64,000 nucleotides of DNA from a virus: the IMG/VR virus record IMGVR_UViG_3300046819_000377, positions 3,802 to 67,801 of that record; one strand, written 5' to 3'. Made by a program: the position numbers and the translations under genes. The notes under the pieces were generated by a model. The model did not search any database. It was not told the DNA's origin and saw nothing but the letters and a program-made list of their open reading frames with translations. Position 1 is the first letter of the stretch; each line of letters opens with the position of its first letter. Shown here in pieces: positions 447 to 39,092 of this stretch.

Positions 447-871
447 TTCAAGTAGTTGTATTAGAAGCATCGGATATAGTCCTAGCAACCGATTATTGCC
501 GACCATTATCTTTATCATCCGGGTATGATGATGGGTATTCATTCACCAGTATGTATAGTGGTAGACCCATCAACAATGTTAAATGGACTCGGGTAGAACA
601 AGTATTCGGACCAGTATGGTTTAACAAATCGGTTGAAACACTTAATGAAGCATTGGGGCTACATGAATTCATTCGTGGCAAATTACCAGAAACACATTTA
701 TATGGTAAGACCAAGGAAGAACAAGCAGCAGAGTATGATGAATATCTAAAATCAAATGTGTTCCCTTATGGTAAACATAAAGAATTAACATTTTATGAGG
801 TCAGGTACAGATTTCCTGACTATTTCAATTGGGCAATTTCCAAAGGAATTATTAAAGATGAAATATATTAA
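443..871 (+). CDS. hypothetical protein (142 aa)
   Basis: ORF track. ATGA overlap with the upstream stop. No motif recognised. Confidence 0.55.
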   Translation: MIQVVVLEASDIVLATDYCRPLSLSSGYDDGYSFTSMYSGRPINNVKWTRVEQVFGPVWFNKSVETLNEALGLHEFIRGKLPETHLYGKTKEEQAAEYDEYLKSNVFPYGKHKELTFYEVRYRFPDYFNWAISKGIIKDEIY

Positions 872-1094
872 ACGACATATCAAAACATCAAAATTCCCAT
901 ATGCAATTGAATTCATGTTTGATTCATCTGACCAAATAACCGAATCGGATGTATACCAATGGTGTACAGAAAACTTTGGTGTGCCATCACCAAATGGTGA
1001 TGAGATGGGATATAAATGGATCAAAAGCTTATTTGGATTACGATTCAAAGATGAAGCACATTTAAATTGGTGTATTATGAGATTTTCATCATGA
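858..1094 (+). CDS. W-family small protein (ends ..EAHLNWCIMRFSS*)
   Basis: Internal ATG (MKYIKRH) at 858, overlapping the end of the upstream ORF. C-terminal family motif. Confidence 0.5.
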   Translation: MKYIKRHIKTSKFPYAIEFMFDSSDQITESDVYQWCTENFGVPSPNGDEMGYKWIKSLFGLRFKDEAHLNWCIMRFSS

Positions 1095-1276
1095 CTGTGC
1101 TAGATATTCGAAACTTCCCGAAATTTGCAGACTATTGCCTCAGCAAATACACACCATACGTAACATGGGAGATATGTATCAAATATGAAGGATTTGATGT
1201 AATTAGGGTTCGTGATTATCATTACGAGTTTCAAGATGTCGATGCAACATGGTTCATTCTTAAATGGAGTAGTTGA
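1091..1276 (+). CDS. W-family small protein (ends ..DATWFILKWSS*)
   Basis: ATG 1091 overlaps the upstream TGA (ATGA). C-terminal WFILKWS. Confidence 0.6.
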   Translation: MTVLDIRNFPKFADYCLSKYTPYVTWEICIKYEGFDVIRVRDYHYEFQDVDATWFILKWSS

Positions 1277-1930: not shown

Positions 1931-2752
1931 ATGACAATTACAGCTCAAGATTGCAGAACCGCTATCAAAAATAGCAAATCAATTAGTCCATTACTCACTT
2001 ATGCTTCTGATTGGAAACAAGCACGTAAGTATAAAGCCAACAACGGTGATAATGTGCGAATCTTTAACAGCAGTATTATGAATGAAACTGTTTACGTAAT
2101 CGAACGTGGGTATGGATTGGAAGTTACTCTCACTAAACCAGATATGCAATGGTCATTCGAAATTCAACCCTATGCACAATGGGATGAATATGATACTGTT
2201 AAGTTTCGTGTATATGGCAATGAACAATATGAATCTGGTTTTGTAGCCAATCATGTTAAAGGGTTGCCGCCTGGCTCAACCGAGGTATCAGAAGGTATGT
2301 TCAATAATTCAAACTTTACTGAATACAATTTTATTGAAATGATGGAGTCGGCAAACTTCAATAATATGACACCTGATCTTGGTGAGAAACCTGAAAAACC
2401 TGAACCACCTGAAGAAGGGTGTGGCGCAGATGAATGTTGCGGTGGTTCTTGTAGTTTTGGAATATCACTTTCAAGTGATGACGACTCGGATTTAGTTGAA
2501 GATTTCTGGTATTATGAAATCATAACAGATGAAGCGGATGGAGAGTATATAAACATTACTTCTAAAGCATACTGGGAGAAATATGGTTATCTTGATGATA
2601 AAATTGCCAGTGATGCATTGAATCAAGCATTGCCACTTGGGTTTTCTGAATTAGCTGAGAGTACATTTGACTACAATGGAAATATGGCTGCTGCCAAAAC
2701 AGCATTGGATGCCACTGGAAATTTTCAAGAGTTTTGTTTTGGATTTTATTGA
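1931..2752 (+). CDS. hypothetical acidic protein (273 aa), Cys-rich patch CGADECCGGSCSFG
   Basis: ORF track. Promoter upstream. Confidence 0.6.
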   Translation: MTITAQDCRTAIKNSKSISPLLTYASDWKQARKYKANNGDNVRIFNSSIMNETVYVIERGYGLEVTLTKPDMQWSFEIQPYAQWDEYDTVKFRVYGNEQYESGFVANHVKGLPPGSTEVSEGMFNNSNFTEYNFIEMMESANFNNMTPDLGEKPEKPEPPEEGCGADECCGGSCSFGISLSSDDDSDLVEDFWYYEIITDEADGEYINITSKAYWEKYGYLDDKIASDALNQALPLGFSELAESTFDYNGNMAAAKTALDATGNFQEFCFGFY

Positions 2753-2776
2753 CACACCAGTAAAATCTGCTATAAT
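2749..2776 (+). promoter_or_regulatory. sigma70-like promoter TTGACA-N16-TATAAT
   Basis: TTGACA 2749-2754, TATAAT 2771-2776. SD aagagga before ATG 2805. Confidence 0.6.
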
Positions 2777-2804
2777 ACAACCAACTTAAACAAAGAGGAC
2801 AACA

Positions 2805-3188
2805 ATGAGTATCGCAACTGAACAAGAACAACTGGATTATTTTTATAAACGTGTTGAAACTATCAAACACAGTAAGTTATTGACTAAAACTTTGCCTAGT
2901 CCAGGTCTTGTTATTACACACAGAGAGGTGGTTCAAGCATTAATTGATGGTTCTGCTACACTACGTGATACAGATGCCATGGGGCCTATTATTTACATTA
3001 GTGAGTTAAATTGGCCGGATTTAATAATAAAAGAACAAGAACATAAACAACGAGTTACACAGGCACAAGAAGATTATAATGCATACCATATCGCATTAAA
3101 TGAATCTATCTCAAAAATTATGGATAAGGTGGTATTAGGTAAACTAAAACCATTAGAAGCAATTGAACAGATTGAACAATTAGATTAA
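2805..3188 (+). CDS. hypothetical protein (127 aa)
   Basis: ORF track, promoter and SD. Confidence 0.6.
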   Translation: MSIATEQEQLDYFYKRVETIKHSKLLTKTLPSPGLVITHREVVQALIDGSATLRDTDAMGPIIYISELNWPDLIIKEQEHKQRVTQAQEDYNAYHIALNESISKIMDKVVLGKLKPLEAIEQIEQLD

Positions 3189-3209
3189 TTTAACAACAAA
3201 GAGTAAACA

Positions 3210-3440
3210 ATGAAAATGAAAGGTTTTACACTAATCGAGATAGTTATTACTATTGCTATCATCTGCATTATTGGCGGTATTATACACACCAACAGTAACA
3301 ATGTATCAGTCGGTATCAATGGTATGGTGGAAACACGATGTATCAATAATTTACAATTTGTAATAGGCGAGAAAGGCAGGGTCACACAGGTCCTTGATAC
3401 CAATGGCCATGGCGTTTCTTGCACCAAATCAAACATTTAA
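3210..3440 (+). CDS. prepilin-like small protein (type IV pilin N-terminal motif)
   Basis: N-terminus MKMKGFTLIEIVITIAIICII has a G-F-T-L-I-E class III signal/N-methylation motif plus a hydrophobic helix. SD aaagag. Confidence 0.5.
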   Translation: MKMKGFTLIEIVITIAIICIIGGIIHTNSNNVSVGINGMVETRCINNLQFVIGEKGRVTQVLDTNGHGVSCTKSNI

Positions 3441-3454
3441 TAAAACATAAAAAT

Positions 3455-4123
3455 ATGACAACTTATACAACAACAAAATCAAATGCAATGACACGTGTTT
3501 ATCGCAACATGGCTTTATCGGTATTCACTACCATGGTAGTAGCGTATATCGTTAGCCAAAGTCCAACATTAACTGCATTCTTTTTAACTGGCCCAATGAA
3601 ATGGGTAGTGCTATTAGTACCACTGGCAATGGTTTTTGTTTTCCATGCAGTTTTGCAATCAACCGAATCGCCAATTGTGGCCCACAGTCTATTACAGATC
3701 TTTTCAGCAACATTTGGTATTAGCTTGTCGGTGATCTTTCATCAGTATAGTGCTGGGTTGATTACCAGTGCGTTCTTGGGTGCAACGGTATTGTTTACCA
3801 CTATGGCAATTTACGGGATGACTACTAAACGAGATTTAACATCGATTGGTGCCTTCTTGATGGTTGGATTAATTTCTTTAATTATTGTTAGTGTTATCAA
3901 TCTATTCATTGGTAATTCATTATTAGATTTGACATTATCTGGGATTGGTGTTATCATCTTCTTGGGCTTTACCGCATATGATGCACAAAACATTCAAGAA
4001 ATGGTTAACTATGAAAGTAATACCAATCTTGAAGTAATGGGCGCTTTGTCATTGTATCTTGACTTTGTAAATCTGTTTCTGGATTTACTGAGATTATTTG
4101 GTGCTTTAGCATCCGACGATTAA
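3455..4123 (+). CDS. Bax inhibitor-1 / YccA family inner-membrane protein
   Basis: Seven hydrophobic segments. C-terminal signature ..DAQNIQEM..NLEVMGALSLYLDFVNLFLDLLRLFG is typical of BI-1/YccA (PF01027). Confidence 0.7.
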   Translation: MTTYTTTKSNAMTRVYRNMALSVFTTMVVAYIVSQSPTLTAFFLTGPMKWVVLLVPLAMVFVFHAVLQSTESPIVAHSLLQIFSATFGISLSVIFHQYSAGLITSAFLGATVLFTTMAIYGMTTKRDLTSIGAFLMVGLISLIIVSVINLFIGNSLLDLTLSGIGVIIFLGFTAYDAQNIQEMVNYESNTNLEVMGALSLYLDFVNLFLDLLRLFGALASDD

Positions 4124-4125
4124 TG

Positions 4126-4154
4126 TTGACAAGAGTGTATTGTAGCAATATAAT
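4126..4154 (+). promoter_or_regulatory. sigma70 consensus promoter TTGACA-N17-TATAAT (overlaps terminator hairpin)
   Basis: TTGACA 4126-4131, TATAAT 4149-4154. Confidence 0.6.
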
Positions 4155-4166
4155 ACACTCTTTTTT
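4132..4166 (+). terminator. rho-independent terminator
   Basis: Stem AGAGTGTATT / AATACACTCT followed by TTTTTT (4161-4166). Confidence 0.65.
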
Positions 4167-4196
4167 AGCGTGATTTAAATTAGTAGGTATTAATTC

Positions 4197-4418
4197 ATGT
4201 CTTTTAAAGTAAAAATTATTCGAGTCCAATTCAAAACTTGGCGATCATGGAAAAACTGGGATGCTGGTAGACGGCAATGGGATGGTACTAATAAAAGTTA
4301 TGGGCAGTATTGTGTTAAACATTATCCTATCTGCTTATCTGCTAACAGTGTATTTGGTGGAGTAGAATTTACGTTTGAATCAGAAGCACATTATCACTGG
4401 TTCTTATTACAACAATGA
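4197..4418 (+). CDS. W-family small protein, subfamily A (ends FESEAHYHWFLLQQ*)
   Basis: First of six tandem paralogues. ORF track. Confidence 0.6.
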   Translation: MSFKVKIIRVQFKTWRSWKNWDAGRRQWDGTNKSYGQYCVKHYPICLSANSVFGGVEFTFESEAHYHWFLLQQ

Positions 4419-4651
4419 CTATTGAAATAATTGACAATTTTGGAGCCCCAATATCTAAATTTCCACTGATAAGTAAAGCTTGGTGCATGAATTATACACA
4501 TTCTACCGATTTTGCCCAATGGGTTAAAGACACCTTTCCTGAAATTATAGATGTTAACAGAATGGGTGGATACTATCTGAAAGATCACCCAGCTTACCGA
4601 TATACATTTGAATCTGAAGCACATTACACTTGGTTTTTATTACAACAATGA
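4415..4651 (+). CDS. W-family subfamily A (ends FESEAHYTWFLLQQ*)
   Basis: ATGA overlap with upstream stop. Conserved C-terminus. Confidence 0.6.
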   Translation: MTIEIIDNFGAPISKFPLISKAWCMNYTHSTDFAQWVKDTFPEIIDVNRMGGYYLKDHPAYRYTFESEAHYTWFLLQQ

Positions 4652-4866
4652 TTTACCAACTAACAATACATAGCAGAATAGCTGGTAAATGGGCAACCAC
4701 TAGAATGTACGTCCATGATTTCCAGTTCCAAGGTAAATTACCCAATTGGCTAATGCACCACCATGACGAAATCATTCACGCCGAGTATCACCATGGGGAT
4801 CGAATGTACCTAAACATAACCTTTAATTCAGAAGCACATTATCACTGGTTTTTATTACAACAATGA
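4648..4866 (+). CDS. W-family subfamily A (ends FNSEAHYHWFLLQQ*)
   Basis: ATG 4648 overlaps TGA (CAACAATGA junction). The ORF-track start was a TTG inside the upstream gene. Confidence 0.6.
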   Translation: MIYQLTIHSRIAGKWATTRMYVHDFQFQGKLPNWLMHHHDEIIHAEYHHGDRMYLNITFNSEAHYHWFLLQQ

Positions 4867-5120
4867 CATTTCAAATAGAAGATCCTTGGGCATCACCTTA
4901 TTCTAGATTCACAGGGTGTTATAAAAGATGGTGTGATATAGTAGATATCAGTTCCAGCAATAATCTTGATGCACCTGATTTTTTTACCTGGATTAAAGAA
5001 ACATTTCCTGAAATAATAAAGATTGAAACAGTTGATGAACATGACTATGAATATTTAACTTTTAAATATACATTTGAATCTGAAGCACATTTCACTTGGT
5101 TTTTATTGAGGTGGTCATGA
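4863..5120 (+). CDS. W-family subfamily A (ends FESEAHFTWFLLRWS*)
   Basis: ATGA overlap. Conserved C-terminus. Confidence 0.6.
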   Translation: MTFQIEDPWASPYSRFTGCYKRWCDIVDISSSNNLDAPDFFTWIKETFPEIIKIETVDEHDYEYLTFKYTFESEAHFTWFLLRWS

Positions 5121-5338
5121 ATTACGAAATTATATTACCCAGCAACATATACAGAGCATGGGATTCATTCAAAGAATATACCAATGTAGCTGATATGTTG
5201 TCATTCAAAGATTTTATTATGGAAAACTACCCAGAATGCGTATCAGTAGCATATACGATACCATCACCGAGGTTACTGGATATGACTTTTACATTTAAAT
5301 CTGAAGCGCATTACACTTGGTTTTTATTAAAACAATGA
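5117..5338 (+). CDS. W-family subfamily A (ends FKSEAHYTWFLLKQ*)
   Basis: ATG 5117 lies within the GAGGTGGTCATGA junction. Confidence 0.6.
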   Translation: MNYEIILPSNIYRAWDSFKEYTNVADMLSFKDFIMENYPECVSVAYTIPSPRLLDMTFTFKSEAHYTWFLLKQ

Positions 5339-5535
5339 GTTATACAATCGCAGTCCAAGCTTCCACATTTAATTTTTTTGGTAAATGGCGAGAAGCTGGG
5401 TTCGTTGGTACTTTCTCTGATTTTGTATTTACTAGGTACCCTGATATACTGGATTTCAGGGTATGGGGGCATTCGGAGTATCTACTGACTTTTGAAACAG
5501 AAGCGCATTACACTTGGTTTTTATTACAACAATAA
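5335..5535 (+). CDS. W-family subfamily A (ends FETEAHYTWFLLQQ*)
   Basis: ATGA overlap. Confidence 0.6.
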   Translation: MSYTIAVQASTFNFFGKWREAGFVGTFSDFVFTRYPDILDFRVWGHSEYLLTFETEAHYTWFLLQQ

Positions 5536-5544
5536 GGTTAAATT

Positions 5545-5766
5545 ATGACACAGTATAGAGTATTAGAAGATACAGCAACTGGTAGTTTTTATCCACAGCG
5601 TAAACGTAGTTGGTATTTAGGGTGGGAATATTTTGAAACTAAAAGGCTTGGTCGGATGTTTCATCATGACCTTAACAGTGCATATCGGTGGCTTGATAGA
5701 TTCACAGACAATTCTAAACCAAATTCTATAATTCACGAGTACCCACCAAAGCAGTTTGACAAGTAG
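5545..5766 (+). CDS. hypothetical protein (73 aa)
   Basis: ORF track. SD aaggttaaatt-ATG. Confidence 0.5.
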   Translation: MTQYRVLEDTATGSFYPQRKRSWYLGWEYFETKRLGRMFHHDLNSAYRWLDRFTDNSKPNSIIHEYPPKQFDK

Positions 5767-5783
5767 TTTTATTTTGTTATAAT
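5756..5783 (+). promoter_or_regulatory. sigma70-like promoter TTGACA-N16-TATAAT + conserved ACACAAC..AGAGAGACACAACATG leader
   Basis: TTGACA 5756-5761, TATAAT 5778-5783. The leader is near-identical to those at 21866 and 22357. Confidence 0.6.
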
Positions 5784-5817
5784 GCACACAACTTAACACA
5801 ACACAGAGAGACACAAC

Positions 5818-6324
5818 ATGATTGAATATACAGTACGAGTTCATAAAGATAGAACCGAATGGTTTTTAAATGGCGAATTACATCGAGAAGATGGTCCAGC
5901 TGTTGAAAGGATAAATGGTTCTAAATTATGGTATTTAAATGGTAAACGTCATAGAACAGATGGCCCAGCTATTGAATATGCCAATAGCGAAAAACAATGG
6001 TATTTAAATGGCGAATTACATCGAGAAGATGGCCCCGCTATTGAATGGAAAGATGGATCTAAAGCATGGTATTTAAATGGACAATCACATCGAGAAGATG
6101 GCCCTGCACTTGAATGGGCAAATGGCGAAAAACAATGGTATTTAAATGGTAACCGTCATAGAACCGATGGCCCAGCTATTGAATATGCCAGTGGTAAAAA
6201 AGCATGGTACTTAAATGGTCAAGAATACACAGAACAAGATTTTAACAAACTGATTAATTGCACAGAATTATCAATAGCTGAAATCGAACAATTACTTGGT
6301 TATAAAATTAAGGTGGTAAGATGA
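5818..6324 (+). CDS. MORN-variant repeat protein (W[YW]LNG.xHREDGPAIE repeats)
   Basis: Seven 23-aa repeats. C-terminus ..EQDFNKLINCTELSIAEIEQLLGYKIKVVR. Confidence 0.7.
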   Translation: MIEYTVRVHKDRTEWFLNGELHREDGPAVERINGSKLWYLNGKRHRTDGPAIEYANSEKQWYLNGELHREDGPAIEWKDGSKAWYLNGQSHREDGPALEWANGEKQWYLNGNRHRTDGPAIEYASGKKAWYLNGQEYTEQDFNKLINCTELSIAEIEQLLGYKIKVVR

Positions 6325-6692
6325 TTGAATACACAGTACGAGTTGACAGAGATAGAACCGAATGGTATTTAAATGGCGAATTACATCGAGAAGATGGACC
6401 AGCTGTTGAATTTGAGAATGGTTACAAAGAATGGTGGTTAAATGGCAAGCGTCATAGAACAGACGGACCAGCGGTTGAATGGATAAATGGTTCTAAATTA
6501 TGGTATCAACATGACAAATTACATCGAGAAGATGGCCCAGCTATTGAACGTGCGGATAGATCTAGAGAGTGGTATTTAAATGGACAAGAATATTCAGAAC
6601 AAGATTTTAACAAACTGATTAATTGCACAGAATTATCAATAGCTGAAATTGAACAATTACTTGGATATAAAGTTAAAATCGTTGATAAGTAG
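6321..6692 (+). CDS. MORN-variant repeat protein
   Basis: ATGA overlap with upstream gene. Repeats WYLNGELHREDGPAVE. Confidence 0.7.
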   Translation: MIEYTVRVDRDRTEWYLNGELHREDGPAVEFENGYKEWWLNGKRHRTDGPAVEWINGSKLWYQHDKLHREDGPAIERADRSREWYLNGQEYSEQDFNKLINCTELSIAEIEQLLGYKVKIVDK

Positions 6693-6709
6693 TCTTATTC
6701 TGCTATAAT
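6682..6709 (+). promoter_or_regulatory. sigma70-like promoter TTGATA-N16-TATAAT
   Basis: TTGATA 6682-6687, TATAAT 6704-6709, then leader acacccaatttaaacacaagag. Confidence 0.5.
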
Positions 6710-6737
6710 ACACCCAATTTAAACACAAGAGATTCTT

Positions 6738-7127
6738 ATGAACATTAAACAAGAAATCAAACAAATTTACGAACGCCTTGCAGTTCTAGAAAAACAACTA
6801 GACGAAGAACAGTATGACTGGGATAATGCACCTGTCATTTACACATATAATGCAGTTGAATACAGAATGGGTCCAAAAGCTGCAAAAGAAATGTCTTGGG
6901 AAGATGCAAAAGAATGGTGCAACTCAGTAGGCGGTGAATTGCCAGATATAGAGACAATGTTGGTTTGTCAAGTATTGAATATGCATAAAACTGGCGAATA
7001 TTGGACTAACGTTTCAAGGGGCATTGACAACACGGCATGGATTCATAGATTTGAATGGAACCAATCTTTTCCTATTGCAGTAGGTTGTCTCAGAAGTGTA
7101 ATTGCTGTTAGACAGTACCGGTTGTAA
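6738..7127 (+). CDS. hypothetical protein, possible DUF1566 (Lcl C-terminal)-like fold
   Basis: MSWEDAKEWCNSVGGELPDIETMLV..YWTNVS resembles the W.eA..WC.....G.LP..eEL pattern of DUF1566. Confidence 0.45.
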   Translation: MNIKQEIKQIYERLAVLEKQLDEEQYDWDNAPVIYTYNAVEYRMGPKAAKEMSWEDAKEWCNSVGGELPDIETMLVCQVLNMHKTGEYWTNVSRGIDNTAWIHRFEWNQSFPIAVGCLRSVIAVRQYRL

Positions 7128-7128
7128 T

Positions 7129-7224
7129 ATGTGTGATAACGAATTTGTCCCAGTAATTTTATTCATTGTAATAATATATCTTATCTTTAAAAGATCAGCC
7201 AAAGATTGGAATAGATTAAAATGA
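7129..7224 (+). CDS. small hydrophobic peptide (31 aa, one TM)
   Basis: MCDNEFVPVILFIVIIYLIFKRSAKDWNRLK. TAATATG start and ATGA overlap with the 7221 gene. Below the ORF-track size cutoff. Confidence 0.3.
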   Translation: MCDNEFVPVILFIVIIYLIFKRSAKDWNRLK

Positions 7225-7445
7225 CTGAACTTGTAATTGCCTACAAATCTAAACTTGATGATAAGTTGTATGAATTATATACACAGCGCAGTTACCGTGG
7301 TGATTGCGGTTACCGTGGTGGTTGGTTTGGTTTTATTAGAAGTTTAGATCCAAAAATTATAAGTGTATATAAACGTAATTGGGACACACATATTGCATTT
7401 GAAGGCGAAGAATATAGAAATTGGTTTATTTTGAGGTGGTCATGA
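7221..7445 (+). CDS. W-family small protein (ends EYRNWFILRWS*)
   Basis: ORF track. C-terminal motif. Confidence 0.6.
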   Translation: MTELVIAYKSKLDDKLYELYTQRSYRGDCGYRGGWFGFIRSLDPKIISVYKRNWDTHIAFEGEEYRNWFILRWS

Positions 7446-7627
7446 AAAGAATAAAGTTTGATACATATGATTTCCCAAAATTCATTGATGCAACGGATGA
7501 TATTATTGGGTGGCATGAATCTTTTATTTCACAAGGGTATAAGACTTATAAAAATGATTATAATAGTTATCCCAGACACAGTTTGAGTGAAGAAGAATAT
7601 ACTTGGTTTGTTTTGAGGTGGAGTTAA
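7442..7627 (+). CDS. W-family small protein (ends EEEYTWFVLRWS*)
   Basis: ATG 7442 in junction TGGTTTATTTTGAGGTGGTCATGA. Confidence 0.6.
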   Translation: MKRIKFDTYDFPKFIDATDDIIGWHESFISQGYKTYKNDYNSYPRHSLSEEEYTWFVLRWS

Positions 7628-7914
7628 TGAAAGAATATTCTGTAAAATTTACTGCTTGGGAAGTTTTAAAACCAGATGGTTATGGCGTAGGTGATGAACA
7701 TATTGCATACTTTTCATCTAGTTCCGAAGCTAACAAATTCAAAGCACAATACAAAGACCATTGGCCTAGACGTGTTAGAAAAGTCGAGATTGACAAACGT
7801 TGGGTAGTATGCGATACTGTTGAAGAAATTAACCAAATGGAACTGCTTAATAAAAAAGCAGCAGCATTAGTTAAACTTACTGAAGAAGAACGTAAAATTT
7901 TGGGATTAGAATAA
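7627..7914 (+). CDS. hypothetical protein (95 aa)
   Basis: TAATG overlap. Internal ATG of ORF 7603..7914. Confidence 0.5.
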   Translation: MKEYSVKFTAWEVLKPDGYGVGDEHIAYFSSSSEANKFKAQYKDHWPRRVRKVEIDKRWVVCDTVEEINQMELLNKKAAALVKLTEEERKILGLE

Positions 7915-8105
7915 TGAAAGTATGGGCAGTATTAATAAAAACCGATTCATGCGATGAATATAATTATGTTTATGATTATAAACCAACTCGTGCTGAAGTA
8001 ATTGAGCGAGTTTGGCAAGATGAAGGTGAAATTGAATCACTGGATTGGTACCTAGAAACAACTAATGTGTCTATTAGTGAAACAGAAATTGGAGTTGAAG
8101 TATGA
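7914..8105 (+). CDS. hypothetical protein (63 aa)
   Basis: TAATGA overlap. Confidence 0.5.
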   Translation: MKVWAVLIKTDSCDEYNYVYDYKPTRAEVIERVWQDEGEIESLDWYLETTNVSISETEIGVEV

Positions 8106-8320
8106 ACGAAGAATTAATTAAAAACCTGGTAGATGATTGTTATTCCGCTGATGGAGAATTTGATACTATTAAATTTGCTGATACTATTATCACAAAATGT
8201 ATAGTGTTATGCCACAGTAATACACAAACGCATAAATCACCACTTAACACCCATAATCTCGCTGTTTTTGATTGTGCTATGACTATTAGTCAACACTTTG
8301 GATATGACGAGGCGGCATAA
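8102..8320 (+). CDS. hypothetical protein, H-family-like C-terminus (..HFGYDEAA)
   Basis: ATGA overlap. Starts MNEELIKNL like H-family members. Confidence 0.5.
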   Translation: MNEELIKNLVDDCYSADGEFDTIKFADTIITKCIVLCHSNTQTHKSPLNTHNLAVFDCAMTISQHFGYDEAA

Positions 8321-8484
8321 TGAGAATTTTATTAGAACAAGAAACCAAGCTATGGCGCAATCTCAGGAAGGCGCACCGCAGACGGGAAAATAACGGTATG
8401 TCAACCGAAACATTTGACATGTTGGCATTATATTCTGTGTGGTGGAGAGATACACCAGCAGTACAATTTATTAAAGGGTTGTAA
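8320..8484 (+). CDS. small basic protein (54 aa)
   Basis: TAATGA overlap. MRILLEQETKLWRNLRKAHRRREN... Not in the ORF track (below 60 aa). Confidence 0.35.
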   Translation: MRILLEQETKLWRNLRKAHRRRENNGMSTETFDMLALYSVWWRDTPAVQFIKGL

Positions 8485-8487
8485 ACA

Positions 8488-8973
8488 ATGAAAATTTTAA
8501 TTAAACCGTTTATTTGGTTTGCAGTATGGTTCCTAATCTTTGAAGAATGGTTATGGGATACACTAAAATCATATGGTGCGGCATTAGCTAAAGCCCTACG
8601 CCTACAACGTGTAGAATGGTGGCTTGCCAATACTTCACCAACTGTAGCTTTGATCTCATTAGCTATTCCATCATTAATCATTACACCGTTTAACTTGTAT
8701 GCATTATTCATGATTGCACATGGCATGGTTATTCAAGGCATTATCCTTGAGGTTGTGGCTAAACTAGTTGGTACATTATTGTTATCTAGGATCTTTGCAT
8801 TAACCAAAACACAACTATTGACATTTGGTTGGTTCAATTATTGCTATACTAAAATCATGTTGACGTTAGACTGGGCACATGCTAAAATTAAGGCCACTAA
8901 CACATACAAGGTAGCAGTTGAATTTAAGCAAACTGTTAAGCAACGAGTTAAACAACTATGGGCAACAATATGA
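8488..8973 (+). CDS. membrane protein (161 aa, several TM helices)
   Basis: Hydrophobic segments FIWFAVWFLIF, ALISLAIPSLIITPF. Confidence 0.55.
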   Translation: MKILIKPFIWFAVWFLIFEEWLWDTLKSYGAALAKALRLQRVEWWLANTSPTVALISLAIPSLIITPFNLYALFMIAHGMVIQGIILEVVAKLVGTLLLSRIFALTKTQLLTFGWFNYCYTKIMLTLDWAHAKIKATNTYKVAVEFKQTVKQRVKQLWATI

Positions 8974-9206
8974 ACGAGAGAATAAGAGAACTTGCTGAAC
9001 AGGCTAACATACCAAAGTATAACTTGGAATATGGAACCGAATTATGTATTGCACCTCATCTTGAAAAATTTGCCGAGTCGATTATTAAAGAAACTATCAA
9101 AATCATTCAAGCAACTGCTGCAGAATCTGTAGACTTGGATAGAACTTTAGTAGAAAATGTATCATGGACCGTAAATGATATCAAGAAACATTTTGGTGTA
9201 GAATAA
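8970..9206 (+). CDS. H-family small protein (MNERIRE.. LEKFAESIIKE .. HFGVE*)
   Basis: ATGA overlap. First member of a tandem array of about 13 genes. Confidence 0.6.
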   Translation: MNERIRELAEQANIPKYNLEYGTELCIAPHLEKFAESIIKETIKIIQATAAESVDLDRTLVENVSWTVNDIKKHFGVE

Positions 9207-9496
9207 TGAACGAAAAAATTAAAGAAATCATGTATAAAGTTGATGATATCAACATTTTAAATGAGGTTGGTACTGATGCTGATTTTTTAGCAGATATTGA
9301 CCCACAGCGCCTAGAAAAATTTGCTGAGTTGATTATTAAGGAATGCATCGAACAGATAGAAACATGTTTTGCCGGTGGTTCAGTATCAATGGACGATAAA
9401 CCAATATGGGGACCTTCGGTTGATACTTTTAAAGCTTGGAATTGTGGCTTAAAATGCAGCAGAAAACATATCAGCGAAGTGTTTGGAGTAAAATAA
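9206..9496 (+). CDS. H-family small protein (MNEKIKEI..LEKFAELIIKECI..VFGVK*)
   Basis: TAATG junction. Confidence 0.6.
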   Translation: MNEKIKEIMYKVDDINILNEVGTDADFLADIDPQRLEKFAELIIKECIEQIETCFAGGSVSMDDKPIWGPSVDTFKAWNCGLKCSRKHISEVFGVK

Positions 9497-9705
9497 TGAA
9501 CGAACAACTAAAACCCTTTATGGCTGGATTTTCGTTGTCTGGTGAAAGACAACGAAATGGAAAGATCAGACCGCACGTTTATCATGATAAAAATGTATTA
9601 GAAATCGATGAATGGCCTAAAACTATCGAATTGTTCAACAATACATACGGACTTGAAGAAGTGGTTTCAGGAGTCGATGGTTATGAATGTGCCAATTATT
9701 GTTAG
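9496..9705 (+). CDS. H-family-related small protein (MNEQLKPF..)
   Basis: TAATGA junction. Cys pair at C-terminus. Confidence 0.5.
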   Translation: MNEQLKPFMAGFSLSGERQRNGKIRPHVYHDKNVLEIDEWPKTIELFNNTYGLEEVVSGVDGYECANYC

Positions 9706-9715
9706 GAGTTGAAGA

Positions 9716-9937
9716 ATGATTTTCCATAATAGTAATCCTAATTTATTTGTTGTATTTGAAGCAAAACTATTGCGAAAGATTCCTGGTAGTGGAGTAAAAG
9801 TGGGTGACACTATCTATGCATCATTGATGCCAGATAATTATTACTACTTGAGTAAGAGTGGTACTGTTGGCAGTCGCATTCTAGGTAGAGTGTTTGAAAC
9901 CGAAGCAGTCGAAAATGTTGATTTTGTGAGAGTATGA
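9716..9937 (+). CDS. hypothetical protein (73 aa)
   Basis: SD taggag upstream. Interrupts the H array. Confidence 0.5.
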   Translation: MIFHNSNPNLFVVFEAKLLRKIPGSGVKVGDTIYASLMPDNYYYLSKSGTVGSRILGRVFETEAVENVDFVRV

Positions 9938-10164
9938 TGAACGAGAAAATTAAAGAATTATTTGAACAAGCTTATGGTGGGGAATGGCCAACTGACATTA
10001 CAAACATTGCGCCATCAGAATTAGAACGATTTGCCAAGTTGATTGTTAATGAATGTGTTCAAATTTGTAGAGATATTATTATGTGCGAGGAAACCGATCT
10101 CGATTATAATGATGCCGTAATCGATTGTGCTGTGATGATCGAACGACATTTTGGAGTAAAATAA
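9934..10164 (+). CDS. H-family small protein (MMNEKIKELF..LERFAKLIVNEC..HFGVK*)
   Basis: ATGATGA overlap. Confidence 0.6.
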   Translation: MMNEKIKELFEQAYGGEWPTDITNIAPSELERFAKLIVNECVQICRDIIMCEETDLDYNDAVIDCAVMIERHFGVK

Positions 10165-10358
10165 TGAACGAGAAGATTAAAGAAATTTATAACAGAGCAT
10201 TTACGGAATACTTCGGTGAAGAATATAAAGATTGCGAGTTAGATATTCTCCCCGAGGATCAATATTTTGCAGAATTGCTTATTCGAGAATGTGCCAATTA
10301 TGCGTTTTCAGATGATCAAGAACGTAATACGATGTTAAGTCATTTTGGAGTAGAATAA
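10164..10358 (+). CDS. H-family small protein (MNEKIKEIY..HFGVE*)
   Basis: TAATGAACGAGAAGATTAAAGAA junction. Confidence 0.6.
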   Translation: MNEKIKEIYNRAFTEYFGEEYKDCELDILPEDQYFAELLIRECANYAFSDDQERNTMLSHFGVE

Positions 10359-10603
10359 TGCGTAATACCATAGAAGAACTACGAATACAAGCCGGTATTA
10401 ACAAAACTATTGTACAAGATTTCCAAAATAGCAATACTGAAATGATTACATATTCTGCGGATACACAAGCTCTTACTACCTTAATTAATTTGGTGGTAGA
10501 AAAAACTTTAGGTCATGTAGAATTTTTAGTTGACATTCAACCAGACTTCAGTATAATCCGAAAAGAAGTTGCACATGCTTTTGATTTTAATGGAGAAGAA
10601 TAA
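10358..10603 (+). CDS. H-family-related small protein
   Basis: TAATG junction. Confidence 0.5.
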   Translation: MRNTIEELRIQAGINKTIVQDFQNSNTEMITYSADTQALTTLINLVVEKTLGHVEFLVDIQPDFSIIRKEVAHAFDFNGEE

Positions 10604-10908
10604 TGAATAATAAACTGGATATATTTTTAGGTATTTTAGGTATTGGTATTTTGTTTGGTATGTGGTATATTACTAGTGATGGGTTTTCATATTCTCGATT
10701 ATCTAATAAAAATATCGAAACTGCTCAATTGTTATATCAATCAAATGAATTTGACGAAGCATGTCTATATGCTAGGGTTGCGTTAACAGAAGCAGCAGAA
10801 TCTCATAATGCTGAACTTTTAAATACTATTAAATTGGAAAGAGACCGTATTTGTGGTAAAAAAGATGAACTAGATCAAGCAGCCAAACATAAGATTGGAA
10901 TAGAATAA
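10603..10908 (+). CDS. H-family-related protein with N-terminal TM helix (ends KIGIE*)
   Basis: TAATGA junction. LGILGIGILFGMWYI helix. Confidence 0.5.
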   Translation: MNNKLDIFLGILGIGILFGMWYITSDGFSYSRLSNKNIETAQLLYQSNEFDEACLYARVALTEAAESHNAELLNTIKLERDRICGKKDELDQAAKHKIGIE

Positions 10909-11090
10909 TGAATAATAGAATTGAAGAATTAAAAAAACAAGCTATGTATACCGTGTATTCTCATGGTGCATTTGGTGAGCCAGAAAACTACGAACGATTG
11001 GATGTAAATAAATTTGCTGAGTTAATTATTAAAGAATGTTCTGTTATTACTAACAAAACTGATCTTTTAAAACATTTTGGTATTGAATAA
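10908..11090 (+). CDS. H-family small protein (..FAELIIKECS..HFGIE*)
   Basis: TAATGA junction. Confidence 0.6.
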   Translation: MNNRIEELKKQAMYTVYSHGAFGEPENYERLDVNKFAELIIKECSVITNKTDLLKHFGIE

Positions 11091-11091
11091 T

Positions 11092-11391
11092 ATGAACGAA
11101 AAGATTAAACAACTGTATAACCAAGCGATTAATGAAGCATCGGAAGAGATGCGAGAATGGCATACGCAATGGAATAACAAGCCACCATTGTTTGATTATG
11201 AGAAATGTTTATATGGCAAGTTCGGTGAATTGCTTATTAAAGAAGCAGAATCCAAGTATTTTAGTGAAGGCTATCTTGCCGGTAAAACTGATGGCATTAA
11301 TGAAGGTATAAAAGATTGTATCAGCCATTTTGAAGAACATGGTGATATGGTTAGTGCAGGTAATCTACAATCGCATTTTGGTATTGAATAA
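11092..11391 (+). CDS. H-family small protein (MNEKIKQLY..HFGIE*)
   Basis: Junction GAATAATATGAACGAAAAG. Confidence 0.6.
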   Translation: MNEKIKQLYNQAINEASEEMREWHTQWNNKPPLFDYEKCLYGKFGELLIKEAESKYFSEGYLAGKTDGINEGIKDCISHFEEHGDMVSAGNLQSHFGIE

Positions 11392-11621
11392 TGAACTATA
11401 GTATTGCGAAAGACTTGAATATTATTGCGCGAGCAAATGCTAGTGCTATAATAGCCGAAGCTCATAAAAATGGTCAATCGATTAATGTTGAAGCGGTTAA
11501 AATTCATGAATTTGCCGAAATTATTATTTTGGAATGCATCAATGTAATTTCAAGCCATAGTGATCCGTTTGCTCAAAATTCATACATTAAAGTACTCAAA
11601 GAACATTTTGGTATTGAATAA
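11391..11621 (+). CDS. H-family small protein (..FAEIIILECI..HFGIE*)
   Basis: TAATGA junction. Confidence 0.6.
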   Translation: MNYSIAKDLNIIARANASAIIAEAHKNGQSINVEAVKIHEFAEIIILECINVISSHSDPFAQNSYIKVLKEHFGIE

Positions 11622-20001: not shown

Positions 20002-20217
20002 ATGGGTTTTTCAGAAATTGTATCACTAGGTTTTTACGCAATTCCTATAATTATTAATTTTACATTTTTTTATTTTATAAGTCGTAATGAACGATTAACA
20101 CGAAGGATGGGTGATAATATGGATTGTTCTATGTTCTTTTCATGTATACCAGTGGCGAACATTTGTGTTAGTATACCGTTAATATTTAATTATTTAAATT
20201 ACAGGTTATCTCGATAG
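20002..20217 (+). CDS. small membrane protein (71 aa)
   Basis: Two TM helices. Confidence 0.5.
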   Translation: MGFSEIVSLGFYAIPIIINFTFFYFISRNERLTRRMGDNMDCSMFFSCIPVANICVSIPLIFNYLNYRLSR

Positions 20218-20429
20218 TGAGTTACTCAGTAAACTTACGATTTAAAACGTATCGGCATTGGAATACTTTCAAAGAATGGTGTGAATCTACCTATCATCAA
20301 CATACGAATTATGCTATTTATCTTCAACATATGCATGAAGATTTGATTGAATCGGTTAATATTAATAATTCACCAGAAATAACATTTAAATCAGAAGCAC
20401 ACTACCATTGGTTTTTATTACAACAATAG
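20217..20429 (+). CDS. W-family subfamily A (ends FKSEAHYHWFLLQQ*)
   Basis: Dispersed seventh copy of the 4197-5535 array type. Confidence 0.6.
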   Translation: MSYSVNLRFKTYRHWNTFKEWCESTYHQHTNYAIYLQHMHEDLIESVNINNSPEITFKSEAHYHWFLLQQ

Positions 20430-21449: not shown

Positions 21450-21836
21450 ATGCAAGTAATTAATATTTTTGATGGAAGTGTTAAATGGTATAATAAGTAT
21501 GGCAACCTTCATCGGGAAGACGGACCTGCTATTGAATTCCTAAATGGTACACGATCCTGGTGGCGTAATGGGCTTCGTCACAGAGACGATGGACCAGCTG
21601 TTGAATGGGCAAATGGATATAAAGCATGGTATTCAAATGGTAATCTTCATAGAGTAGGTGGTCCTGCATGTGAATATCCAAATGGTGATTATGACTGGTA
21701 CTGTTCTGGTAAATGTCACCGGCTAGATGGTCCGGCGAGAGTATGGGCAGATGGAACACGTTGGTATTATATTGATGGTATAAAACTAACCAAACATCAA
21801 TGGTTACAAAAGAAAGGATTTATAATTGTTAAGTAG
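21450..21836 (+). CDS. MORN-variant repeat protein (divergent)
   Basis: NLHREDGPAIEF, LRHRDDGPAVEW, CHRLDGPARVW repeats. Confidence 0.6.
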   Translation: MQVINIFDGSVKWYNKYGNLHREDGPAIEFLNGTRSWWRNGLRHRDDGPAVEWANGYKAWYSNGNLHRVGGPACEYPNGDYDWYCSGKCHRLDGPARVWADGTRWYYIDGIKLTKHQWLQKKGFIIVK

Positions 21837-21842
21837 ATTATG

Positions 21843-21870
21843 TTGACAAGTAACCATAAACTGTTATAAT
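21843..21870 (+). promoter_or_regulatory. sigma70-like promoter TTGACA-N16-TATAAT + conserved leader
   Basis: TTGACA 21843-21848, TATAAT 21865-21870, leader GCACATAACTTAACACAACATAGCGAGACACAACATG. Confidence 0.6.
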
Positions 21871-21904
21871 GCACATAACTTAACACAACATAGCGAGACA
21901 CAAC

Positions 21905-22345
21905 ATGATTGAATACACAGTACGAGTTTATGAAAATAAAACCGAATGGCGTTTAAATGGACAATTACACCGAGAAGATGGTCCTGCTATTGAACGGGAA
22001 GATGGATCTAAATTATGGTATCAACATGACAAATTACATCGAGAAGATGGTCCAGCTATTGAATGGTCAAATGGTTCTAAATTATGGTATCAACATGACA
22101 AATTACATCGAGAAGATGGTCCAGCTATTGAATGGTCAAATGGTGAAAAACAATGGTATTTAAATGGCAACGTACATCGAGAAGATGGCCCAGCTGTTGA
22201 ATATACCAGTGGCAATAAAGAATGGTGGTTAAATGGTAAAAAATTTACAGAACAAGAATTCAATCAACGAACCCAGGGTAAAGAGCTATCAGTAGCTGAA
22301 ATTGAACAATTACTTGGTTATAAAGTTAAAATTGTTGACAGATAA
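21905..22345 (+). CDS. MORN-variant repeat protein
   Basis: Five WY(L/Q)(N/H)..HREDGPAIEW repeats. C-terminal LSVAEIEQLLGYKVKIVDR. Confidence 0.7.
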   Translation: MIEYTVRVYENKTEWRLNGQLHREDGPAIEREDGSKLWYQHDKLHREDGPAIEWSNGSKLWYQHDKLHREDGPAIEWSNGEKQWYLNGNVHREDGPAVEYTSGNKEWWLNGKKFTEQEFNQRTQGKELSVAEIEQLLGYKVKIVDR

Positions 22346-22362
22346 TAGTAATCTGTTATAAT
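22335..22362 (+). promoter_or_regulatory. sigma70-like promoter TTGACA-N16-TATAAT + conserved leader
   Basis: TTGACA 22335-22340, TATAAT 22357-22362. Confidence 0.6.
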
Positions 22363-22396
22363 GCACATAACTTAACACAACATAGCGAGACATAAC

Positions 22397-22912
22397 ATGA
22401 TTAAATATAGAATACGGGATTATCCTAAATGGTATTTAAATGACAACGTACATCGAGAAGATGGCCCAGCTATTGAATGTGCAGAGGGCTATAAAGAATG
22501 GTGGTTAAATGGCAAGGCATACACAGAACAAGAATTCATCCAAATGACCCAAGGAAAAGAGCTATCAATAGCTGAAATTGAAGAATTACTTGGTTATAAA
22601 ATTAAGGTGGTAAAAATGATCGAATACACAGTACAAGTTTACGAAGATAGAACTGCATGGTTTTTAAATGGCAAATTACATCGAGAAGATGGACCAGCTA
22701 TTGAATGGATGGGTGGCAATAAAGAATGGTGGGTAGATGGCAAATTACATCGAGAAGATGGCCCAGCTATTGAATGGATGGGTGGCAATAAACAATGGGT
22801 TTTAAATGGCAAATTACATCGAGAAGATGGACCAGCTATTGAATATGCAAATGGTTACAAAGAATGGTGGGTGAATGATAAACGTCATAGAACAGATGGC
22901 CCAGAGATCTAG
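22397..22912 (+). CDS. MORN-variant repeat protein: in-frame fusion of two MORN genes, 3' end disrupted by frameshift
   Basis: ..LLGYKIKVVK-MIEYTVQV.. fusion at 22606-22612, where a 1-nt difference from the 6318-6324 ATGA junction removes the stop. A 17-nt deletion near 22905, relative to the 6545 copy, truncates the C-terminus. Confidence 0.5.
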   Translation: MIKYRIRDYPKWYLNDNVHREDGPAIECAEGYKEWWLNGKAYTEQEFIQMTQGKELSIAEIEELLGYKIKVVKMIEYTVQVYEDRTAWFLNGKLHREDGPAIEWMGGNKEWWVDGKLHREDGPAIEWMGGNKQWVLNGKLHREDGPAIEYANGYKEWWVNDKRHRTDGPEI

Positions 22913-23039
22913 AGAGTGGTATTTAAATGGTCAAGAATATTCAGAACAAGATTTTAACAAACTGATTAATTGCACAGAATTATCAATAGCTGAAATCGAA
23001 CAATTACTTGGTTATAAAGTTAAAATTGTTGACAAATAA
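22906..23039 (+). repeat. orphan 3' fragment of MORN gene (near-identical copy of 6559-6692)
   Basis: Out-of-frame continuation encodes RSREWYLNGQEYSEQDFNKLINCTELSIAEIEQLLGYKVKIVDK*. Confidence 0.6.
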
Positions 23040-23056
23040 CAGATTACTGTTATAAT
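23029..23056 (+). promoter_or_regulatory. sigma70-like promoter TTGACA-N16-TATAAT
   Basis: Upstream of natV. SD TAGGAG. Confidence 0.55.
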
Positions 23057-23108
23057 AAATAAACATTAGCGATAGACGCTAATAACAATTAACTATAGGA
23101 GTTATAGT

Positions 23109-24122
23109 ATGAAAAAATATGATAATGCAGTAGTAATCATGAGAGCGCAACCACTTCACAACGCTCATTTAGAATTAATCAATAGAGCAGCAGAATTGGC
23201 AAAAAATGTCATTATCTTGCTCGGCTCATCCAAACAACCAAGAACATTTAAGAATCCATTTACATTCAGTGAACGTTGTGGGATGATCTTACGTTCAATT
23301 AACATCAAACCAGCCGTTCAGGTTTATATCGAACCATTAGTGGATATTCCTTATAATGATCAGGTTTGGGCGATCAATGTCCAACGCATTGTTGCTGAAT
23401 GTACACATGGTCAAAGTGTTTGTTTGCTTGGACATAATAAAGGTCCAGAAACCTACTACCTAAAACTATTTCCACAATGGGCTTTGGAAGAATTCGATAA
23501 TGTACAAAACCAATTGAATGCCACTGATATTCGTGAGTTGTATTTTAAAACTCCATATAACCAAGATTATATCAAAGGTGTGGTACCTGATGATACTTTA
23601 TCATTCTTAAATCAATTTCATGGAACCGATGAATACAATGCCATCCTAGATGAGAAAGAATTCATCGCCAAGTATAAACAACAATTTGCTGGTTTAGCAT
23701 ATCCTCCAGTATTTGTTACTGTGGATTGCTGTGTGATTCAATCTGGTCATGTATTAATGATTGAAAGACGATCAAATCCTGGAAAGGGTACTTTTGCCAT
23801 GCCCGGCGGCTTTCTAGATCAAAATGAACTAATCATCGATGGTGCTGTTCGTGAATTAAAAGAAGAAACTAAAATCAAAGTGCCAGTGCCAGTGTTAAAA
23901 GGCAGCATTAAAGCAAGTCATGTATTTGATCACCCAGGTAGATCATTTAGAGGTAGAACTATTACCCATGCTTTTTACATCGAATTACCAGAAGGGCCAC
24001 TTGAAAAAGTTAAAGGTGCCGATGATGCAAAAACCGCAACATGGATTCCAATATCACAATTACAAAGTGAAAATTGCTTTGAAGATCATTATTCAATTAT
24101 TCAACATTTTTTAGGAAACTAA
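23109..24122 (+). CDS. natV: bifunctional NMN adenylyltransferase / Nudix ADP-ribose pyrophosphatase (NadM-Nudix, NatV-like)
   Basis: N-terminal nucleotidyltransferase (VIMRAQPLHNAH). C-terminal Nudix box GGFLDQNELIIDGAVRELKEETKI. Confidence 0.8.
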   Translation: MKKYDNAVVIMRAQPLHNAHLELINRAAELAKNVIILLGSSKQPRTFKNPFTFSERCGMILRSINIKPAVQVYIEPLVDIPYNDQVWAINVQRIVAECTHGQSVCLLGHNKGPETYYLKLFPQWALEEFDNVQNQLNATDIRELYFKTPYNQDYIKGVVPDDTLSFLNQFHGTDEYNAILDEKEFIAKYKQQFAGLAYPPVFVTVDCCVIQSGHVLMIERRSNPGKGTFAMPGGFLDQNELIIDGAVRELKEETKIKVPVPVLKGSIKASHVFDHPGRSFRGRTITHAFYIELPEGPLEKVKGADDAKTATWIPISQLQSENCFEDHYSIIQHFLGN

Positions 24123-24980: not shown

Positions 24981-25290
24981 ACAACTATCAGTAAATGAAG
25001 CATGGCTTTTTTTAAAAGAAGTCACTAAAAGAGGAACCAATTCTTTATCAAAAGAAGAATTGGTCAAATACCATGAATGTCGTAAAATTACACTTAATGC
25101 AAGAAAACCACCATCGGTTCATACCAGACATCAAGTAGTTGATCATGAAACATTCGGCGGTACAACTTACAGAATTACCAAGGAATTAGATATCACTATT
25201 ACCGATATTTGTGATATGAGTGATGAGGATATCTTAAAACTGATTGACGTAAAATCAACATTGGCTTATATTAGATCTACTTTGATATGA
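24973..25290 (+). CDS. hypothetical protein (105 aa)
   Basis: ORF track. Confidence 0.5.
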   Translation: MSEQLSVNEAWLFLKEVTKRGTNSLSKEELVKYHECRKITLNARKPPSVHTRHQVVDHETFGGTTYRITKELDITITDICDMSDEDILKLIDVKSTLAYIRSTLI

Positions 25291-25499
25291 TCATAGAAAT
25301 TTTCGATGCAGGGATTGCGTTTAAATTTAAATTCGGTGCTGACGTTCTTCGTACTAATGATGAAATACGAAACACAAATCAACAAGAAATGGAGCTATGG
25401 TGTAAAGACCAATTTGGTAGCCAATTTACATCACGGTATAATCATTTTTACTTTGCCAACGAAGAACAACGTAATTGGTTTATTTTGAGGTGGTCATGA
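25287..25499 (+). CDS. W-family small protein (ends EEQRNWFILRWS*)
   Basis: ATGA overlap. C-terminal motif. Confidence 0.6.
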   Translation: MIIEIFDAGIAFKFKFGADVLRTNDEIRNTNQQEMELWCKDQFGSQFTSRYNHFYFANEEQRNWFILRWS

Positions 25500-38989: not shown

Positions 38990-39092
38990 AGGCAATCATT
39001 GTCAATGACGGCTTTTCATGATCCCGTAATGCTTTTAATCTCTCATATTGCGGAATAGTTAATTTAATTGTTTTTGCCATTTAAAAATCTCA

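Follow-up and report, generated by a model that had tools for sequence, protein, structure and literature searches.

The DNA analyzed here is a 64,000-nt stretch of IMG/VR virus record IMGVR_UViG_3300046819_000377 (positions 3,802 to 67,801 of that record), referred to below as the window. It has a G+C content of 35% and belongs to an uncultured large phage whose genes include a nicotinamide phosphoribosyltransferase and homing endonucleases, and whose virion proteins show ~51% amino acid identity to cyanophage S-RIM32 protein. A megablast search of GenBank phages with both array regions described below returned no close match among deposited genomes. Spread over both strands of the window are ~30 paralogous open reading frames (ORFs) that share the C-terminal pattern F.F..E.....WF[ILV][LI][RKQ][WFQ][SG], and a repeated 24-mer, TGGTTTATTTTGAGGTGGTCATGA, forms the 3′ end of members of this family. 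The family genes, together with a promoter-like site ahead of one group, are as follows.

858-1276, plus strand: two family genes, 858-1094 (WCIMRFSS) and 1091-1276 (WFILKWSS).
4126-4154, plus strand: sigma-70 consensus match at 12 of 12 positions (TTGACA-17-TATAAT), just upstream of the 4197-5535 array.
4197-5535, plus strand: six tandem family genes (4197-4418, 4415-4651, 4648-4866, 4863-5120, 5117-5338, 5335-5535).
7221-7627, plus strand: two family genes (7221-7445, 7442-7627).
20217-20429, plus strand: a family gene of the WFLLQQ type that stands alone and starts with GTG, with a product matching P0002.
25287-27043, plus strand: eight family genes in tandem, with stop and start overlapping throughout (RWS-TCATGA, KYS-TCATGA and KFSEYL(E) junctions).
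35172-35405, minus strand: family gene ending WFVIKWS, written TCATGA.
37573-39499, minus strand: five family genes with KWG-type tails (39499-39287, 38944/38989-38726, 38733-38521, 38033-37839, 37842-37573).
41892-44669, minus strand: five family genes (44669-44358, 44358-44122, 43889-43533, 43533-43288, 42146-41892).

The array at 4197-5535 is mostly of the WFLLQQ type, with a 21-mer junction, TGGTTTTTATTACAACAATGA, that provides an ATGA overlap without a Shine-Dalgarno (SD) site. The complete sigma-70 match ahead of it suggests that this array would be transcribed as one operon; a further 12/12 match, at 5756-5783, also lies ahead of an array. In a scan of the window, no promoter-like site of at least 10/12 coincided with a junction, and the internal junctions were likewise free of terminator matches. 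Gene 7442-7627 ends with TTGAGGTGGAGTTAATG, which contains an SD site with GGAG and a TAATG stop/start overlap, while the KFSEYL(E) junctions of the 25287-27043 array are written ...TCGGAGTAYYTATGA and take their SD from GGAG.

Several neighboring genes were recorded alongside the arrays. A gene for a Bax inhibitor-1/YccA-family membrane protein (3419-4123, plus strand) lies directly 5′ of the first array and occupies the same place in three related loci (L001, L004, and L005). Two NAD salvage genes (23109-24122 and 29340-30803, plus strand) flank the array at 25.3-27.0 kb, namely a likely NMN adenylyltransferase-Nudix fusion, judged from its translation alone, and the nicotinamide phosphoribosyltransferase (phrog_448). 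Homing-endonuclease-like genes of the HNH or NUMOD3 and the GIY-YIG plus NUMOD3 types are found among the minus-strand cassette groups (39646-40617 and 45934-46698, plus strand; 48738-49709, minus strand). Within those groups, the gene at 43533-43889 (minus strand) encodes a fusion of the WF..LRW domain to an N-terminal segment, ..IIPMIRKV.P.LIA..IVGVQPM..; this segment matches the N-terminal part of gp23, the major capsid protein of T4-type phages (PF07068; major head protein PHROGs), and is also present in P0001, P0013, P0017, P0026, P0030, P0053, P0090, and P0122.

The window also holds repeats of other kinds. A second tandem family of ~8 paralogues of 60-104 amino acids (8958-11621, plus strand) has an N-terminus MNEKIKE.., an internal ..KFAELIIKEC.., and a C-terminus ..HFG[VI]E*; its own junction, ...TTTGGTGTAGAATAATGAACGA..., with a TAATG stop-start overlap, is a second conserved coding junction in the same phage. 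Paralogues with MORN-like repeats (WYLNGELHREDGPA units with a 69-nt period) are located at 5818-6692 and ~21500-23060 (plus strand), in two clusters 15.6 kb apart that are linked by stretches of 75-91% nucleotide identity. Long collagen-like Gly-X-Y repeats with periods of 9, 18, and 27 nt run from 61500 to 64000 (plus strand), up to the end of the window. Finally, a short direct duplication, TACCGTGGTG..TACCGTGGTGG, at 7289-7324 (plus strand) within gene 7221-7445 encodes YRGDCGYRGG. It is common to L001 and missing from the L002 and L004 orthologues, and it is coding, although the terminator scan calls it a stem.

The WF..LRW family extends well beyond this phage. A profile built from the window members retrieved 624 cluster representatives from metagenomes (E ≤ 0.001), nearly all of 55-160 amino acids and with the domain at the extreme C-terminus; their consensus is ..M..WC...FG....RW....F.FKNEEDRNWFLLRWS. 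Pfam, PHROG, NCBIfam, and PDB-sequence searches with the family domain gave no match, and tblastn of typical members against GenBank phages found none, except for one marginal match in a Sinorhizobium jumbo phage. Fifty further IMG/VR loci, on contigs of up to 400 kb with 31-44% G+C, contain arrays of up to 24 family genes per 6 kb. In one related locus, L008 (IMGVR_UViG_3300044613_002694, 1972-11558), 40 members are packed into 11.6 kb, almost all joined by junctions of the ...TTGAGGTGGTCATGA type. The predicted fold is a small beta-alpha-alpha-beta-beta-alpha domain (pLDDT 86), and the N-terminal half of the proteins is hypervariable. Our guess is that they are diversified early proteins that may bind components of the host or of its defences. 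The family is large, with 624 clusters and up to dozens of copies in a genome, and unnamed; its expansion suggests an arms-race function worth testing.

An earlier note on this DNA had drawn attention to the 24-mer as a repeated gene junction. Searching the window located four exact copies and one variant with two mismatches, TGGTTTTTATTGAGGTGGTCATGA, all on the plus strand, while the chance expectation from 100 dinucleotide-preserving shuffles was 0 matches. The repeat is as that note described it, except that its start coordinates were one base too low, giving 25-nt spans for a 24-mer; the ends were correct. The junctions are:

5097-5120, plus strand: variant junction TGGTTTTTATTGAGGTGGTCATGA, WFLLRWS*, between genes 4863-5120 and 5117-5338.
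7422-7445, plus strand: exact 24-mer; WFILRWS and TGA of gene 7221-7445, SD GAGGTGG at 7433-7439, and ATG at 7442-7444 of gene 7442-7627.
25476-25499, plus strand: exact 24-mer, between genes 25287-25499 and 25496-25696.
25673-25696, plus strand: exact 24-mer, between tandem duplicates 25496-25696 and 25693-25896.
25873-25896, plus strand: exact 24-mer, between genes 25693-25896 and 25893-26141.

At all five positions, the first 21 bases are the last seven codons of an ORF of 66-85 amino acids, followed by TGA. The encoded C-terminus is WFILRWS* at the four exact copies and WFLLRWS* at 5097, and in every case the stop overlaps the ATG of the next ORF by 4 nt (ATGA), as in coupled cistrons. The four exact copies do not represent four independent events, because those at 25673 and 25873 lie in a tandem duplicate (95% identity over 129 nt), and the one at 7422 is a recombination joint, as discussed below.

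The leucine, arginine, tryptophan, serine, and stop codons of the motif are spelled TTG-AGG-TGG-TCA-TGA, a string that contains GAGGTGG 5 bases ahead of the stop-overlapping ATG. Counted from GAGG, the start follows after 5 nt, which falls within the spacing typical of coupled cistrons (~5-9 nt). The predicted duplex of GAGGTGG with the anti-SD sequence is -10.1 kcal/mol, calculated with a generic 16S 3′ tail that may not be that of the host; the corresponding means are -4.2 for 128 other gene starts of the window and -2.2 for random sites. The claim that protein motif and coupling signal are one and the same sequence therefore holds for these codons. Among independent loci, a -4 stop/start overlap occurs at 155 of 278 family junctions.

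Other subfamilies arrive at similar signals from different amino acids: the KWS tail is written AAA TGG AGT TAA and the KFSEYL tail TCGGAGTAYYTATGA, both of which contain GGAG, and the KWG tail includes TGGGGA. Tails of the WFLLQQ subfamily have no SD and only the ATGA overlap, so that an SD is not obligatory for junctions of the family. An RNA structure that sequesters the SD was also considered and rejected, as 84-nt junction RNAs fold no better than shuffled sequences (z from -0.14 to +2.0), with four of the five copies less structured (+0.2 to +2.0).

Codon choice at the junction departs strongly from that in the rest of the phage. In long genes of the window, AGG makes up 6.0% of Arg codons and TTG 18.8% of Leu codons, from which ~1% of Leu-Arg pairs would be expected to read TTG AGG. 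The motif uses this pair in 73 of 82 distinct cassettes, a count drawn from 125 distinct cassettes of the window and 26 related loci. Tails with Leu-Lys instead use mostly the background codon TTA. Synonymous positions in the half of the motif that runs from SD to ATG (Leu first and third, Arg first and third, Ser third, and stop second) are 92-99% invariant, compared with 44-87% for third positions of neighboring codons. This invariance persists when cassettes with the exact 24-mer are left out, and it is also seen in loci that were retrieved with protein sequences instead of the 24-mer. Codons in the 5′ half of the motif differ between cassettes (ATT, GTA, ATA, or TTA; TTT or TTC), whereas the SD-ATG half is constant.

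The arginine codon also depends on where the next gene begins. Among deduplicated cassettes from 50 independent loci retrieved with the peptide pattern NWF[LIV]LRW, AGG is used in 80 of the 92 with a start codon 3-9 nt downstream, vs. 7 of the 38 others (odds ratio 29.5; Fisher p = 9e-14, a value that overstates independence, as the cassettes are related). Cassettes were classed by the distance from the Arg codon to the start; a rule that considered only ATG (-7 to +15) was too crude, and many cassettes that it called uncoupled have GTG starts or starts inside C-terminal extensions. Members with no nearby downstream start keep the amino acid motif and use CGA, CGT, or AGA for arginine. The motif's retention in these members and in 624 divergent clusters indicates that the protein constraint came first and that the SD was fitted into it. 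As an explanation of motif conservation, the junction signal proposed earlier thus accounts for the codons (TTG AGG and the invariance of the SD-ATG half) and fails for the amino acids. These data show that synonymous codons are under measurable selection to form a ribosome-binding site for the gene downstream. The arrangement of the sequence and its codon bias can be read off directly, and together they would imply translational coupling at the junction.

Related loci were compared for gene order. Syntenic contigs were found via proteins 61-89% identical to the product of gene 7221-7445 and via the 24-mer; for loci L007-L026, the exact 24-mer served as the query. The comparisons share phylogeny, and many of the loci come from a few related lineages of freshwater phages. 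Their cassette maps differ by whole cassettes that are present, absent, or replaced, listed below with cassettes designated by c and a number.

First array, window, L001, and L010: c8-c0-c9-c1-c3-c16.
First array, L002: c24-c0-c1-c3-c59-c16.
First array, L004 and L005: c24-c0-c1-c16.
Second slot, window and L010: c23-c29 (L014 has the same c23 junction at its contig end).
Second slot, L001: c23-c65-c29.
Second slot, L002: c30-c58-c29.
Second slot, L004 and L005: c45-c65-c29.
L008 region, L008: c47-c85-c55-c34-c2-c92.
L008 region, L016 and L021: c47-c117-c67-c91-c55-c46-c61-c34-c109-...-c2-c92.

Just 3′ of the cassette region, L002 also carries a TnpB/IS605 OrfB-type gene (4344-5522; HTH_OrfB_IS605, OrfB_IS605, Cas12f1-like_TNB), which is absent at the corresponding place in the window.

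Visual inspection placed three crossovers. Up to TGGTTTAT, the window matches the left flank of L004 without a difference, and from TGGTTTAT on it matches the right flank of L004 in the same way; it lacks the cassette c65 (82 amino acids) that lies between these flanks. L002 has a different cassette in this slot. As the two L004 flanks meet at TGGTTTAT, the 24-mer copy at 7422 would itself be the joint of a deletion. We regard it as a probable recombinant joint left by loss of a cassette of ~250 bp, with the direction of the change (deletion rather than insertion) deduced from the comparison. The other two crossovers concern c9, which in the window is bordered by identical 21-mers at 4631 and 4846. 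In L004, c9 is missing through a crossover inside the 21-mer; in L002, where it is also missing, the crossover lies in the GAAGCACATTA block upstream, which suggests that the two loci were resolved separately.

Breakpoints in other cassettes fall in the same narrow interval. In 28 of 28 comparisons of orthologous cassettes with different downstream neighbors, representing 14 cassette clusters, divergence sets in at +5 to +30 nt, counted from where the motif begins, a position partly constrained by the choice of pairs with the same body and different sequence after the stop. Breakpoints could also have been registered within the final ~135 nt of the body; the sole one seen in that stretch is that of L002 at -5. 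Endpoints of BLAST HSPs between loci likewise cluster around the junction. In the 25.5-kb array, one gene (winB) is 98% identical to L007X yet occupies the other position, and another (winA) is chimeric, its 3′ half being 100% identical to L007Y. The earlier proposal that recombination at the junctions shuffles cassettes is well matched by these maps, breakpoints, and crossovers, and the recombinant cassette orders that it suggested looking for in relatives do occur, as differences of whole cassettes.

Exchange does not depend on a match across the whole 24-mer: at the crossovers, the identical stretch measures 8-21 nt and lies either in the 5′ half of the motif or in the conserved block that directly precedes it. 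The junction sequence is identical in 114 of 140 orthologous pairs with the same downstream neighbor, vs. 17 of 59 with a different one. Because junction identity tracks the downstream neighbor, the SD-start half travels with the downstream gene, as follows from crossovers in the 5′ half of the motif. An example is the gene that ends at the 5097 junction, whose orthologue in L004 and L005 has a WFLLQQ tail, the next cassette being missing there. The breakpoints are seen directly in the alignments; the mechanism and direction of each event we infer from the sequences.

A simple expectation, raised in the earlier note, was that synonymous sites at the junction would be more conserved than those in gene bodies. 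Among orthologous cassettes the opposite was found: synonymous differences rise from 2.2% in bodies through 7.3% for the conserved block to 10.3% at the junction. This excess marks the junction as a mosaic boundary, as predicted for a recombination hotspot. Across all ancient paralogues of the window, codon identity is 0.59 at the junction vs. 0.52 in the body; this slight rise indicates that the nucleotide-level constraint is specific to the RWS class. One model fits both results, with selection fixing the SD-start string and recombination moving whole tails between cassettes.

Taken together, these results make it probable that the 24-mer acts as a boundary element between small paralogues in a polycistronic array, combining a protein C-terminus, an SD and start, and homology for recombination. 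The 24-mer encodes the last part of the C-terminal helix conserved in the upstream protein (W-F-I-L-R-W-S), in synonymous codons (Leu TTG, Arg AGG, Ser TCA, and stop TGA) that spell a strong SD before an overlapping ATG; according to this model, a ribosome ending one cistron could initiate the next. Along with the conserved upstream block, the 24-mer is nearly the only nucleotide homology common to cassettes that have otherwise diverged. Homologous recombination, unequal or ectopic, inside one genome or among relatives infecting the same cell, would then resolve at the junction, and such crossovers may delete, duplicate, or replace whole in-frame cassettes. A boundary that both secures expression and serves as the crossover point would leave any recombinant automatically in frame and translated.

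The identity of the 24-mers might instead be a leftover of recent tandem duplication combined with protein constraint on WFILRWS, the SD-like string being incidental. The 25673 and 25873 copies do lie in a duplicate (95% identity over 129 nt), the amino acid motif is kept across 624 clusters, and family-wide codon identity at the junction is only 0.59 vs. 0.52 in bodies. On the other hand, the genes ending at 25476 and 7422 have no comparable nucleotide similarity to the others upstream of the motif, yet their 24-mers are identical; nor would incidental spelling give TTG AGG in 73 of 82 cassettes where ~1% is expected, AGG use that depends on the distance to the next start (80/92 vs. 7/38), or SD-ATG synonymous sites far more invariant than adjacent codons. 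We consider this explanation very unlikely. Concerted evolution alone, through gene conversion and unequal crossing-over, could also have spread the TTGAGGTGGTCATGA form by drift or hitch-hiking, with no selection on ribosome binding. Such a process would fit tails that track the downstream neighbor, orthologues that differ more at the junction than in the body, and chimeric paralogues such as winA, whose 3′ half is 100% identical to L007Y. Conversion by itself, however, gives no dependence of AGG on start distance in independent contigs, and it leaves unexplained why Leu-Lys tails have TTA where Leu-Arg tails have TTG, why KFS tails are extended to SEYL (which supplies GGAG at the right spacing), and why the 5′ half of the motif varies while the SD-ATG half is constant. 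It is therefore improbable as the sole cause.

Cassette-precise gain, loss, and replacement might also be the work of a site-specific recombinase or nuclease acting on the junction as a dedicated site, in the manner of integron attC, rather than of passive homology, and homing endonuclease genes are present in the window (39646-40617, 45934-46698, and 48738-49709). Against such a site, crossovers are spread over ~35 nt, from the upstream block to the 3′ end of the motif, with no fixed position; the junction RNA has no stable or shared fold, unlike the imperfect inverted repeats of attC; no integrase was found adjoining the arrays; and RWS, QQ, and KFSEYL junctions, which differ in sequence, behave alike. 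This makes a dedicated site extremely unlikely. Returning to the boundary element model, it can be extended to a proposal that we offer only tentatively and regard as rather doubtful: the WF..LRWS arrays could be a phage cassette system whose boundary is selected both to keep new cassettes translated and to supply homology for exchange. Such a system would be a homologous-recombination counterpart of the integron, diversifying small ferredoxin-like early proteins that are possibly counter-defence or host-takeover binders.

A literature search for coding junctions of this kind found nothing. A paper on the S-PM2 "ORFanage" (PMC4503421) describes the loss of a block of freshwater-like ORFans and gives no motif or junction mechanism. 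By analogy, the closest described mechanism is the modular shuffling mediated by PeSLs in T4-type phages, in which recombination between copies of the element leads to ORF indels and replacements (PMC2839356; Comeau et al., 2014, PMC4122927). PeSLs are intergenic, consist of a sigma-70-like promoter and a terminator stem-loop, and act on transcription (PMC2839356; Comeau et al., 2014). Shared features are short conserved repeats that separate small, non-essential genes where the genomes of large phages are plastic, whole-ORF indels and replacements between close relatives via recombination at the repeats (a functional analogy only), and an expression signal that doubles as a recombination site. 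In contrast to PeSLs, the junction repeat is coding, as the C-terminal helix of the upstream protein, and would act on translation via its SD and overlapping start; moreover, the genes that flank it are paralogues of one family, whereas PeSLs flank unrelated ORFans. Membership of the junctions among PeSLs was rejected, since they have neither a sigma-70-like promoter nor a terminator stem-loop. With the junctions, the concept of a regulatory repeat that also serves for shuffling is widened from signals for transcription to one that is coding and translational.

Overlapping stop and start codons (ATGA, TAATG) with an SD in the upstream coding sequence are common in phage and bacterial operons. 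The junction resembles them in its 4-nt ATGA, in an SD placed 5 nt from the start within the final codons of the upstream gene, and in the single consensus promoter match; it differs in that a conserved protein motif contains the SD-start, which recurs dozens of times per genome, and in that codon tuning can be demonstrated. It is, in other words, an ordinary stop-start overlap with an internal SD, made unusual by this embedding and by its dozens of repeats. Botstein's modular theory of 1980 reportedly held that linker or boundary sequences in lambdoid phages are preferred sites for homologous exchange of modules. Short conserved gene-boundary sequences as preferred exchange sites are common to both cases, but those linkers separate functionally different modules, while the junctions described here separate paralogous cassettes, with homology imposed by the shared protein motif.

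Integrons recombine site-specifically at structured attC sites by means of an integrase (IntI). The arrays share with them small promoterless cassettes behind one promoter and a content that varies between relatives; they differ in having no integrase or attC-like fold with the junction and in their dispersed crossover positions. No integrase match was found among the scanned proteins of the arrays and larger ORFs, and an attC-like site was rejected on account of the dispersed breakpoints and the lack of a stable junction fold. An integron-like, site-specific mechanism is thus unlikely. Compared with all of these systems, the dual coding of the junction is unsurprising in itself; what makes it a good model, and a sequence-level example, of gene turnover in the plastic accessory regions of large phages is the evidence from codons, together with the joints that were mapped and the scale of the arrays. 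Its description as a boundary repeat that mediates modular shuffling, attached to a large and undescribed family of small proteins, is well supported.
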